10,766 nucleotides of DNA. It comes from a virus. Shown here one piece after another: positions 2,550-6,754 of this stretch. The notes below the pieces were generated by a model. The model worked only from the letters and a program-made list of their open reading frames with translations, searched no databases and was not told the origin of the DNA. The translations under genes were made by a program, and so were the position numbers. Position 1 is the stretch's first letter. Every line of letters starts with the position of its first letter. The stretch lies in UHGV virus genome UHGV-0121619. One strand, written 5' to 3'.

Positions 2550-2876
2550 CTACATAATCATTCCGGTTATTATTACCATTTCAATATCGCTATCTTTCAT
2601 AATGATTGGAGTTGAGTTATCAACTTTACTTTTACTCCATTTTCCTGCATCAGTTTTTACCGCTCCACAATAAGAAAGCCAATCATCATCACAATGTTCT
2701 GGATCACTAATTCTGACAAGAACACGTGATAGTGCTTTTTCGATACTTTCATCACAATTAGCATTTGTGTAATTGCCGTGAGACAATTTCAAATCGTTAA
2801 CTTCATCTTCATTGGCATCAAAAATATAGATTTCAGTCGACTCTGGAACATTTTCATAAACCATTAAAACTTTCAT
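2550..2876 (-). CDS. hypothetical acidic protein (108 aa), early-left accessory gene
   Basis: Complete ORF MKVLMVYENVPESTEIYIFDANEDEVNDLKLSHGNYTNANCDES...; about 21 Asp/Glu vs about 10 Lys/Arg; no recognisable family. Confidence 0.5.
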   Translation of the reverse strand: MKVLMVYENVPESTEIYIFDANEDEVNDLKLSHGNYTNANCDESIEKALSRVLVRISDPEHCDDDWLSYCGAVKTDAGKWSKSKVDNSTPIIMKDSDIEMVIITGMIM

Positions 2877-2969
2877 TTTTACCCCATGTTGTTTATGCCA
2901 AAAATAAATGCCACCGTCAGGCAGCCTTGTTGTAAAGTCGGCGTTTGACTTTCTTGAGCATGGCTCACC

Positions 2970-3179
2970 TCAATCGTAATAAGCTGGAATTGATTTTCCG
3001 CGTTGCTTCTGGCGGCCTGAGCAGGTCACACCCATTTCACTGCGTGGCTTGCGGTAGTAAAGATTGTGCCTGTCTTTTAACCACATCAGGCTCGGTGGTT
3101 CTCGTGTACCCCTACAGCGAGAAATCGGATAAACTCTATTCACCCCTACAGAGAGCAAAAGAGAAACGCCGATGAACAA
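2970..3179 (-). pseudogene. remnant resembling the C-terminal region of lambda-type antiterminator N
   Basis: Last about 30 codons translate to KDRHNLYYRKPRSEMGVTCSGRQKQRGKSIPAYYD, closely matching recalled lambda N C-terminus (ERKNQRTWYSKPGERGITCSGRQKIKGKSIPLI); upstream part of the ORF lacks an Arg-rich RNA-binding motif; a complete P22-type N is present at 3770-4078. Confidence 0.35.
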
Positions 3180-3753
3180 CTCATGGTGGCAGGAACTAAT
3201 GCATTTTTTCCTGCAAGGAATGACACTTAAACAGTTGATTCATATGCTAATCATCCTGATCATATTGATTATTGTTATGCCGGTAAGCGTAAAAGAATGG
3301 ATAAACCTGCATAATCCAGAAATCCTTCCTCATTATTGGATGTATTACATCCTGTTGTTCTGCGTTAGCTATGTGCTTAACGGTGTTGTTAATTCCGCTT
3401 ATCACGCTGTGACTGAAAGAATTGAGGTATCCGCTGCTCAGAAGCGCAAATCTAAAGAAGAAAAATATGTGCAAGATTTGTTTGATTCGTTAACTCTTGG
3501 AGAAAGAGCGTATTTGGCATTCGCTGTAGCCGCGAATAACCAGCTAAAGACAGAAAAGGGAAGCCCCGAAGCAATCTCATTGCTCGAAAAAGGGCTTCTT
3601 ATTCGGATACCTTCTGCTACTGGATATCCTGAAATCGACCGTTTTGTTATCCCGGAACGCTATAGAAATGAGTGCTACATTAGGTTTGCTGGGAAGAAAG
3701 ACAGTCTTATGGATGAACTTATCGCTCAGGATAAGCATGGCAAAAACAAGTAA
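3172..3753 (+). CDS. sieB: SieB-like superinfection exclusion membrane protein
   Basis: 193-aa ORF with two N-terminal hydrophobic helices (LIHMLIILIILIIVMPVSV, HYWMYYILLFCVSYVLNGVV); convergent and adjacent to N as sieB is in lambda/P22. Family call from architecture and position, not alignment. Confidence 0.6.
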   Translation: MNNSWWQELMHFFLQGMTLKQLIHMLIILIILIIVMPVSVKEWINLHNPEILPHYWMYYILLFCVSYVLNGVVNSAYHAVTERIEVSAAQKRKSKEEKYVQDLFDSLTLGERAYLAFAVAANNQLKTEKGSPEAISLLEKGLLIRIPSATGYPEIDRFVIPERYRNECYIRFAGKKDSLMDELIAQDKHGKNK

Positions 3754-3769
3754 TTAGCAAATGATTTTA

Positions 3770-4078
3770 TCATCTCGCCGTCAGTTGTTTTGATTTCCGG
3801 TAGCCTGCCGCGTAAATGGCTACGTTTGGCAGGCAAATACTTCCACTGCATTCATCTGCCTTCTTGCAGCGAAGGCTTCCGAGTGATATTGCTTTTTCAG
3901 AAAGGCTTAAACGCTTTCTTGGGGCTTCCTGAACAGGTTCCTCACTGTCTGTGCCGAAGATAGAATCAATGATGTTGCAGATGGCATCACGCTCGATAGC
4001 CAGCTTTCTGCGCCGCTCATGACGGCGAGTTTTGGCATTTCCTGCAAATGTTGATTTCCCGTACACGATTACCGTCAT
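3770..4078 (-). CDS. N: antitermination protein N, P22 gene 24 type
   Basis: 102 aa from ATG 4076-4078 (MTVIVYGKSTFAGNAKTRRHERRRKLAIERD...), Arg-rich motif near N-terminus as in P22 gp24; AGGA RBS upstream; ORF track start at 4162 is an upstream in-frame Met. Confidence 0.85.
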   Translation of the reverse strand: MTVIVYGKSTFAGNAKTRRHERRRKLAIERDAICNIIDSIFGTDSEEPVQEAPRKRLSLSEKAISLGSLRCKKADECSGSICLPNVAIYAAGYRKSKQLTAR

Positions 4079-4197: not shown

Positions 4198-4232
4198 GCG
4201 CTTTGTCAGCGCCCCATCGAAGTTAAAGAGCC
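4198..4232 (-). promoter_or_regulatory. nutL (boxA + boxB), P22-type
   Basis: Minus strand reads GCTCTTTAA (boxA-like, 4223-4232) - 9 nt - GCGCTGACAAAGCGC (boxB hairpin, 4198-4212), between pL and N. Confidence 0.7.
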
Positions 4233-4269: not shown

Positions 4270-4340
4270 ATGTGTTTAGTATCACCGCTAGTGGTATGCG
4301 TGTCAACACCGCCAGAGATAATTTATCACCGCAGATGGTT
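4270..4340 (-). promoter_or_regulatory. OL1-OL2-OL3 operators with pL promoter (lambda-type)
   Basis: TATCACCGCTAGTGGTA (4280-4296), CAACACCGCCAGAGATA (4304-4320), TATCACCGCAGATGGTT (4324-4340); on minus strand -35 TTGACA (4301-4306) and -10 GATACT (4278-4283), 17-bp spacer. Confidence 0.85.
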
Positions 4341-4540: not shown

Positions 4541-4711
4541 TTATTGGTGCATTTGGCAGAGTGTAGTATCAGGTCCATAAGCCAAAGTAAAAACAGGCTT
4601 GTTGATCAATCCGTTGTTCTTTAATGATTGAATCATTTTACCTTGCTCGCTAACTTTTTGCTTGCTAAGTATTTCTGCCACTTGCTGTGTCAGTGATTTG
4701 TCTTTGCTCAT
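4541..4711 (-). CDS. hypothetical 56-aa protein, translationally coupled to upstream peptidase-like gene
   Basis: ATG 4709-4711 immediately follows peptidase stop TAA 4712-4714 (TAAATG); translation MSKDKSLTQQVAEILSKQKVSEQGKMIQSLKNNGLINKPVFTLAYGPDTTLCQMHQ; stop 4541-4543; not in ORF track (below size cutoff). Confidence 0.5.
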   Translation of the reverse strand: MSKDKSLTQQVAEILSKQKVSEQGKMIQSLKNNGLINKPVFTLAYGPDTTLCQMHQ

Positions 4712-5614
4712 TTATGACTCACTTTGTTCTGAGAATGGGAATGAAGACAGAACAAGAACCTGTCGATTTGTCTTATACATGTATTCATTAATGACGTTGT
4801 GCAGATTTTTTAACGCCATGCTAAAATCTTTGTCGTATGTAAAGTCTTCTACTTTAATTCTTAAGTCATTGATAAGAGTATTTATTCCTATCGTTCTTCC
4901 GTGAGAATGCCACTTTCCGTTGTCACTAAGAGCGGTAGCGATCATTTTAGCTCTCGCTTCTTTTTCCCTCTTGGAAACTAGCTTTCCTCGTTTTGTGTTA
5001 CCTTGATGAACCGTCCACTCTCTGAATTTATACTCTACAAGCCACTTCTTAAGCAAGTCTATTGATAGCTCTCTGGCTTGCTCGTATCTCCTTAAGTGCG
5101 CAAGATCTAACTGACTAAGCATCATTAGTTCAGCTTGGGTAATGGTTCCTTCTCTGGATTTAGTAATCATTTCTTCAACTTTATCAAGGTATCCCAAAGC
5201 AGGAACCCATTTACCGTCAGAGGATTGCACTTGAGGGTCAATGGGGCCTAATGAAGAAGCATAGTTCATGTAAATTTTATCTCCAGACATACACCATATT
5301 GTGCCTGCCGACATGGCCATATCTGGAATGATAAAATATACCTCTTGATAGAAATGCCTTGTAATTTCTACCATTTTTTCCACAGACTCAACAGAGCCAC
5401 CATTTGTATTGAGTATAATAACTAGAAATCTATTGGTACGACTGTTAGCCATCTCCCCAATAGCCTCAAGTTTTGGTTGGTAAACTTCTTTTGACCATGG
5501 AAAGATACCACCGTAGTACGCTATGACGTCGCAGCTTGGGAAAAAGTTATTTTTAAATTGCTCTAACTGCCAAGAAATGTATGTTTCTAGTGTTGAATCA
5601 AGATTTTGGCTCAT
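4712..5614 (-). CDS. ClpP/S49-fold serine peptidase-like protein in the rexAB position (candidate exclusion/defence gene)
   Basis: 300-aa ORF; block LVIILNTNGGSVESVEKMVEITRHF...YFIIPDMAMSAGTIWCMSGDKIYMNYASSLGPIDPQV resembles the GG...(A)ASGG nucleophile region of SppA/ClpP-fold peptidases (putative Ser102 in AMSAG); lies directly downstream of cI on the same strand. Confidence 0.75.
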   Translation of the reverse strand: MSQNLDSTLETYISWQLEQFKNNFFPSCDVIAYYGGIFPWSKEVYQPKLEAIGEMANSRTNRFLVIILNTNGGSVESVEKMVEITRHFYQEVYFIIPDMAMSAGTIWCMSGDKIYMNYASSLGPIDPQVQSSDGKWVPALGYLDKVEEMITKSREGTITQAELMMLSQLDLAHLRRYEQARELSIDLLKKWLVEYKFREWTVHQGNTKRGKLVSKREKEARAKMIATALSDNGKWHSHGRTIGINTLINDLRIKVEDFTYDKDFSMALKNLHNVINEYMYKTNRQVLVLSSFPFSEQSES

Positions 5615-5686: not shown

Positions 5687-6403
<717 letters not shown>

Positions 6404-6500: not shown

Positions 6501-6701
6501 ATGGAACAACGCATAACCCTGAAAGATTATGCAATGCGCTTTGGTCAAACCAAGACGGCTAAAGATCTCGGCGTATATCAAAGCGCGATCAACAAGGCCA
6601 TTCATGCAGGCCGAAATATTTTTTTAACTATAAACGCTGATGGAAGCGTTTATGCGGAAGAAATAAAGCCCTTCCCAAGCAACAAAAAAACAACTGCATA
6701 A
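6501..6701 (+). CDS. cro: Cro repressor, lambda type
   Basis: 66-aa [41 protein letters not shown]... recalled as near-identical to lambda Cro; GGAGG RBS upstream. Confidence 0.95.
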
Positions 6702-6707
6702 GTAACA

Positions 6708-6742
6708 CCGCTCTTTATCAATCTGCACCGCCGACAACGCGG
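6708..6742 (+). promoter_or_regulatory. nutR (boxA + boxB), P22-type
   Basis: CGCTCTTTA (6708-6716) - 9 nt - ACCGCCGACAACGCGGT (6726-6742, 5-bp stem hairpin) immediately downstream of cro. Confidence 0.7.
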
Positions 6743-6754
6743 TAACTAATTAAG

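Follow-up and report, generated by a model that had tools for sequence, protein, structure and literature searches.

A probable displaced 3′ end of the antitermination gene N beyond sieB and sas in a lambdoid prophage early region

The segment at positions 2970-3061 of UHGV-0121619, a viral DNA stretch of 10,766 nucleotides that was analysed as a whole and is called the window here, is very probably the non-functional original 3′ end of an antitermination gene N, displaced by a 795-bp segment that holds a different (class-II) N C-terminal tail, the superinfection-exclusion gene sieB and the antisense RNA gene sas. We refer to the displaced piece as N′. On this reading, the apparent small ORF next to sieB amounts to the sas gene plus a truncated N pseudogene and therefore warrants no protein annotation, and the sieB-sas cassette would sit inside N, having brought its own replacement C-terminus and left the old one behind.

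In the window we see the early region of a lambdoid prophage, with erf (690-1325), cI (5687-6400) and cro (6501-6701), and to the right of nutR (6709-6743, with boxB ACCGCCGACAACGCGGT at 6727-6743) follow cII, O and a DnaB-type P, in that order. A pL-like promoter (4278-4306, minus strand; TTGACA-17-GATACT, 10 of 12 matches in a consensus scan) would, from its position, drive leftward transcription across N, antisense sieB, sas and N′. On the way lie nutL (4198-4231, minus strand), whose boxB GCGCTGACAAAGCGC (4198-4212) and boxA-like GCTCTTTAA (4223-4231) are exact pattern matches, then a complete N (3770-4078, minus strand; Pfam N_peptide, E 9.8e-42) and sieB (3172-3753, plus strand, 193 aa; Pfam PF14163 SieB, E 1.4e-25), whose counterparts in HK140, P22-like phages and others bear the annotation SieB. 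N′ is found about 1.2 kb from nutL, beyond the complete N and sieB. We take the boxB sequences of nutL and nutR to be P22-type.

Several accessory genes accompany this core. Between pL and cI, in the position of lambda rexAB, are two minus-strand ORFs (4541-5614), one of 300 aa that is ClpP/SDH-type serine-protease-like (Pfam SDH_protease, E 1.6e-10; PHROG 11747) and one of 56 aa (PHROG 28875); neither has a PADLOC match, and the pair could be a prophage-expressed accessory or defence pair. Further along the pL operon, the minus-strand ORF at 1823-2350 probably encodes a free-standing homing endonuclease, with HNH_3 and AP2 domains and matches to PHROG 99 (E 1.2e-68) and to PADLOC ‘homing endonuclease’ (E 4.8e-05). 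The 108-aa ORF at 2550-2876 (minus strand) matches PHROG 4658 (E 2.4e-38) and has no Pfam match; 991 blocks of the collection list it, and in pL operons of other prophages in NCBI assemblies it is placed after ral, sieB or other genes.

The minus-strand ORF at 2970-3179 encodes 69 aa from a TTG start, ends in NLYYRKPRSEMGVTCSGRQKQRGKSIPAYYD and, as the earlier note had described, overlaps the start of sieB at its 5′ end, by 8 nt at the ATG (3172). N′ makes up its last 29 codons with the stop (TGA, 2970-2972) and 2 nt of the preceding codon, on the minus strand, and would read YYRKPRSEMGVTCSGRQKQRGKSIPAYYD up to the stop. The likeness to the C-terminus of lambda N that the earlier note had drawn held up on alignment: lambda N ends in RTWYSKPGERGITCSGRQKIKGKSIPLI, and N′ is identical to its residues 82-105 at 17 of 25 positions (68%; BLASTP E 3e-10). 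ORF residues 32-68 align with positions 137-172 of the 176-position profile of PHROG 271, ‘anti-termination protein N-like’ (E 6.9e-11), a match confined to the end of the family profile, and a Pfam search with the ORF gave no match. Closer relatives are found among other intact N genes. All 29 C-terminal residues are identical to those of the N protein of phage HF4s (ending in NRIYYRKPRSEMGVTCSGRQKQRGKSIPAYYD), the N genes of SfI, Sf6 and N7 match the N′ DNA at 94-97%, and the 3′ end of the intact N genes in four IMG/VR loci (L291, L296, L303 and L314) is identical to it at 91 of 92 nt. From these alignments, N′ appears to derive from a class-I (lambda/21/HF4s-type) N gene. The RNA-polymerase-binding region of lambda N comprises C-terminal residues ~73-107, and the C-terminal end of the ORF would correspond to this region.

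N′ itself has no start codon, arginine-rich motif (ARM) or NusA-binding region. The ORF lacks the Arg-rich boxB-binding motif, as first remarked from the letters alone, in that its residues 1-39 (MFIGVSLLLSVGVNRVYPISRCRGTREPPSLMWLKDRHN) hold no ARM; the conserved central patch and NusA-binding region (...SLGSLRCKKA...) is likewise absent from it and is present in the N at 3770-4078. Similarity to intact N stops at 3061/3062, where TTTACTAC is followed by C. Mapping of the breakpoint against lambda- and P22-type genomes, a check proposed in the earlier note, placed the end of N similarity at the same point, with the sas block continuing rightward. The extent originally given for the remnant, 2970-3179, therefore stands for 2970-3061, which is N-derived, and falls for 3062-3179, which is not N. 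Intact N has, ahead of its YY codons, a stretch (TTAAA...CAG) weakly resembling 3062-3090; the resemblance is not distinguishable from chance, judged by hand alignment and by the PHROG match, which starts at residue 32.

The 5′ two-thirds of the ORF correspond to a homolog of P22 sas (~3051-3176, minus strand), antisense to the sieB leader and spanning the sieB ATG (3172-3174). It is identical to P22 sas at 123 of 127 nt (P22 11,387-11,513; Table 2 of PMC13397905, a 2026 small-RNA study in which the P22 numbering matches AF217253 and not BK000583 or NC_002371). From 3044 rightward the window DNA is 97-99.5% identical to the sieB upstream region of HK140 and many P22-like phages, and in lambda the sas block is conserved up to about 3151. 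The sas RNA is part of the sieB/esc system of P22 (Ranade & Poteete 1993, cited in PMC12197685, PMC7067206 and PMC13397905); according to the literature cited in PMC12197685 and PMC7067206, an infecting or induced phage produces this antisense RNA, whereupon sieB is translated into Esc and no longer into SieB. The 3′ end of the sas homolog overlaps the first ~11 nt of N′. Codons 1-39 thus amount to the gene of a known non-coding RNA, read in an arbitrary frame; the ORF is a chimera of the sas region and N′, and the 69 codons are an accidental open frame running through the one into the other. The sas homolog contains two similar short hairpins with loops carrying CUGUAGGGGU, which on the plus strand appear as a repeat, CCCCTACAG[C/A]GAG, at about 3111-3124 and 3145-3158. 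A sieB promoter within the ORF, as suggested earlier, is plausible only for the non-N block at ~3044-3151 that is conserved between lambda and P22-type phages, and that block has no convincing sigma-70 consensus; a sigma-70 scan of 2990-3172 for a sieB or sas promoter gave 7 of 12 matches at best, and a promoter was not placed.

The earlier note had offered, as an alternative, a stand-alone peptide from the N C-terminus, able to bind RNA polymerase but not to recognise RNA; its source could be the 69-codon ORF or, for a shorter product, the ATG at 3086. The frame is indeed open from 3179 to 2970 and a functional N ends in the same 29 residues, but the TTG start has no Shine-Dalgarno sequence (as read from the DNA), codons 1-39 lie antisense to the sieB leader, within a known non-coding RNA, and the internal ATG at 3086 is ACG in P22. 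Moreover, the family searches return only the C-terminal end of the N profile in PHROG and no match in Pfam, the exact ORF product is on record for no gene among 153 billion gene positions, and most of the relatives listed (92 of 128, see below) do not have the remnant. On these grounds we abandon the peptide, whose existence we consider extremely improbable. A further idea, that after prophage induction or superinfection such a free peptide is translated from pL read-through RNA containing sas and interferes with lambda/21-type N antitermination of incoming phages, strikes us as very improbable; if true, the peptide would occupy the N-binding site on RNA polymerase and constitute a second exclusion function on the sieB cassette.

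On the opposite strand, the plus-strand ORF 2945-3175 (76 aa) might itself have been the genuine conserved gene, with a sieB-coupled leader peptide as one possible product, an outcome that the earlier note had named as counting against its own reading. Its TGA overlaps the sieB ATG (ATGA, 3172-3175), a translational-coupling layout. However, it has neither a Pfam nor a PHROG match, its 5′ half is the antisense of N′, and the frame is lost across left flanks: lambda, HK140 and P22-type phages have unrelated sequence in place of that 5′ half, in which the frame meets a TAA two codons short of the block in common. The chance that this ORF is the conserved gene is in our view practically nil.

The other part of the evidence for a displaced N tail comes from the complete N gene. 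It carries a P22-type ARM, GNAKTRRHERRRKLAIERD, and together with the N_peptide match and the boxB sequences of both nut sites this bears out its description as a complete P22 gp24-type N. Codons 1-74, comprising the ARM and central region (3857-4078, minus strand), match the intact N genes of the same four IMG/VR loci, which were found on contigs with the tail motif, at 215 of 222 nt. Those intact genes encode MTVIVYGK...SLGSLRCQKAEEVERKQNRIYYRKPRSEMGVTCSGRQKQRGKSIPAYYD, and in them the part equivalent to 3857-4078 and the part equivalent to 2970-3061 lie only 28 nt apart, while in the window the two are separated by the 795 bp of 3062-3856, which hold the class-II tail, sieB and sas. Alignment of the window DNA with intact class-I N shows near identity up to codon 74 (ending in CTTCGCTGCAAGAAG) and then divergence. 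From there the window N continues into the class-II tail, DECSGSICLPNVAIYAAGYRKSKQLTAR (3770-3856, minus strand), which is also found in the N proteins of P22, HK620, 933W and VT2-Sakai; over window N residues 79-102 the identity to the N proteins of 933W, VT2-Sakai, HK620 and others is 91-96%, and residues 1-74 have 94.6% protein identity to N of Stx2a phages, which ends in a lambda-like tail. These alignments indicate that the functional N and N′ are two pieces of one gene layout split by the sieB-sas cassette, with mosaic recombination blocking proof that both pieces come from the same gene copy.

The existence of an intact N with the ARM of the window N and the tail of N′ also decides which part was exchanged: the C-terminal tail with sieB-sas, and not the boxB/nut module. 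The earlier note had read the remnant as a recombination scar from exchange of the N/nut specificity module, in which an N of lambda/HF4s specificity was replaced by an N of P22 specificity with its nut sites, the old 3′ end being left behind. The functional N and nut sites are P22-type, lambdoid immunity/N regions are known to swap as modules, and the C-terminus of HF4s N carries the identical N′ allele next to a different ARM (DNARNRRRARRQAQ), all as such an exchange would have it. However, given the 215/222-nt and 91/92-nt matches to one and the same kind of intact gene, no change of specificity is needed; the right breakpoint falls inside N after codon 74, rather than outside N or nutL; and the sas-N′ junction is common to phages with at least five N types. 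We thus retain the scar, as one of the N C-terminal region, and regard exchange of the whole module as rather unlikely.

How widely the junction is distributed was examined in a scan of IMG/VR for exact matches to its sas side (at least 120 stretches), which together with the loci collected earlier gave 128 scorable loci; the census contains near-duplicates and its counts are to be read as samples. In 128 of 128 scorable loci among the matches listed, sas is joined to the YY codons of N at the same nucleotide. A long N′ is found in 36 of the 128 loci among the matches listed, in two alleles that end in SKPLI or AYYD before the stop and that each also occur on intact N genes. The remaining 92 among the matches listed, with lambda, HK140 and P22 among the carriers, have only a vestige of ~17 nt of N′, and two loci among the matches listed show an in-frame intermediate, YYRNPLI followed by the stop. 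A deletion of 60 bp between two imperfect repeats, GTGGTTTGC and GTGGCTTGC, could account for the vestige. In lambda it reads GTGGATTGCGGTAGTAAA (17-18 nt, codons YYRN; lambda 34,373-34,390, or 1374-1391 of locus L001), and a split N explains this 17-nt relic of a second N 3′ end. The relic lies between orf28 and the sas-like block upstream of lambda sieB. To the right of the junction the functional N is of at least five types. The sas-N′ junction is old and common to lambda, P22 and HK140-type phages, and does not go back to an event in the window alone.

Two arrangements that might be expected around such a cassette were ruled out. Flanking direct repeats of the N 3′ end are not present, as the functional N contains no second copy of N′ in the long-N′ loci listed (best local alignment score 14 or less). 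Nor does the class-II tail always travel with sas and N′: of 104 scorable class-II-tail loci among the matches listed, 56 have no sas or N′ within 1.5 kb, and the tail is therefore not exclusively cassette-borne.

A second, independent junction family is found in mEpX1/PA28, where the remnant borders on an intrinsic terminator; this junction falls within about 10-18 nt of the codon at which sas is joined. Two families near one codon are mildly suggestive of a preferred boundary. Non-random clustering of junctions at the YY codon was tried and rejected: the ‘terminator-type’ variants are ~67% alike and hence count as one family, leaving only two independent families, which is not significant. 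For the long-N′ junction, a first scan of genome contigs gave no match and a second returned mostly lambda-contaminated assemblies of unrelated taxa, which say nothing about host range. The lambda-type junction was seen in GTDB species-representative assemblies (L135-L156) that include Shewanella, Pseudomonas, Kitasatospora, Neobacillus and Segatella MAGs; the contigs are ~48.4-48.5 kb or short, several with coverage near 1, and these matches look like lambda DNA contamination.

In all 36 long remnants listed, the frame is unbroken to the native stop, with no indels or premature stops. Distinct synonymous/non-synonymous codon variants number 7/8 and 5/6 in the remnants and 12/9 and 9/16 in intact genes, few changes that recombination confounds, and the long remnants may be under weak constraint. 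This preservation could reflect a cis role of N′ in RNA, whether by forming the 3′ end of sas, offering a site for its processing or stabilising it, or by supplying the translational-coupling or Shine-Dalgarno context for the next gene. The reported 3′ end of P22 sas (CUUUACUACCGC) falls within the first codons of N′, and GGTGAG, the Shine-Dalgarno sequence of the ORF that comes next, shares bases with the N′ stop. Yet the 92 vestige loci listed, lambda and P22 included, have lost all but about 17 nt of N′, and of the downstream ORF only a 14-codon stump is present in the window. Structure predictions for sas, made with and without N′, did not surpass those for shuffled sequences (z -0.47 and -1.36), and an Rfam search returned nothing relevant. 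Retention of N′ for such a role is in our judgement quite improbable; as most of the relatives listed do without the remnant, it is dispensable.

For the displaced N tail, we propose that the junction arose once, by illegitimate joining of a sieB-sas segment, from a phage with the alternative tail, to a lambda-type N at its final 29 codons. The cassette would since have spread by homologous recombination, as a double crossover into lambda-type N genes, with the conserved central N patch EKAISLGSLRCKKA as right arm and N′ as left arm, the latter pairing with the C-terminal coding region of the recipient class-I N. The segment 3062-3856 would bring with it the substitute C-terminal tail, the oppositely oriented sieB and sas, and because it includes that tail the N at 3770-4078 stays complete and functional. 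With N-gene homology on both sides the cassette would be copyable into any lambda-type N, and spread through the N′ arm would make N′ alleles nearly identical to those of intact N. The breakpoint after codon 74, the near-identical alleles and the missing second copy all fit a double crossover. The pL transcript would extend past sas and through N′, with no protein made from N′. More generally, N homology on both sides plausibly lets the cassette move between lambdoid phages by ordinary homologous recombination.

To the left of N′, 14 codons are left of the gene that normally comes after N (Sf6 gene 36 / mEpX1_038-like; 2918-2962, minus strand), a stump recognised from alignments with mEpX1, CFSAN064035 and 23AR1217. 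Its Shine-Dalgarno sequence is the one that overlaps the N′ stop, and its homology to relatives ends at 2930. A terminator-like hairpin, GCTGCCTGACGGTGGC and then ATTTATTTTT (2900-2925, minus strand; pattern scan), lies directly downstream of the N′ island; the hairpin is at 2925-2910 with a T-run, and the stump runs into it. The segment 2887-2936 has a 96% match to Stx phages such as VT2-Sakai.

Related prophages carry the same remnant in other surroundings. In E. coli SW070919 (ACVF34_RS10585) and CFSAN064035 (C6669_RS29800), PGAP/RefSeq gives an identical 93 bp the pseudogene label ‘regulator; incomplete; missing N-terminus’, so that N′ is a kind of pseudogene already known from RefSeq annotation. 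SW070919 is 100% identical over 2967-3124. Both strains resemble the window in having the remnant and its junction to the 3′ part of sas; they differ in that another gene, annotated ‘antitermination N domain protein’, takes the place of sieB and of the 5′ half of sas, so that just the 3′ 62 nt of sas are kept beside the remnant. Strain 23AR1217 has the identical remnant-sas junction and then a deletion, and IMG/VR locus L366 has a different N and sieB allele followed by sas, the AYYD remnant and the 108-aa ORF. Among the complete E. coli genomes in the collection, none covers at least 80% of 2900-3200.

Compared with known N genes, N′ shares with lambda/21/HF4s-type N the stop/Shine-Dalgarno arrangement that leads into the next gene. 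Unlike the intact N genes of lambda, 21, HF4s, N7, Sf6 and SfI, it consists of the last 29 codons only and lies 795 bp off, beyond sieB. The sas genes of P22 and the window are alike in being antisense to the sieB start; in P22, sas is followed by the 17-nt N′ vestige and then orf28/ral, whereas in the window it is followed by the full 29-codon N′. A similar relation is found between P22 and phage L. In its passages on gp24, PMC8022706 describes the L and P22 proteins as having the first 75 residues in common, unrelated C-termini and interchangeable function, and L as having no sieB. PM43, of the L/ST64T type, also has no sieB, and its gp24 gene ends in NRIYYRDVNPLGNKIHAVQKQRGKSIPAYYD and is directly followed by orf28/ral, while P22 has the class-II tail, sieB, sas and then the N′ vestige, a short relic of the class-I tail. 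P22 and L/ST64T gp24 are thus like the window: the class-II tail comes with sieB, and the class-I tail stands right before orf28/ral when sieB is absent. The same passages of PMC8022706 do not link the difference in tails to a sieB insertion or to a leftover fragment. The split of N proposed here accounts for the gp24 pattern, in which the same 75 N-terminal residues are joined to unrelated C-termini. Unlike the P22/L pair, the window has both N tails in one genome, one of them as a remnant.
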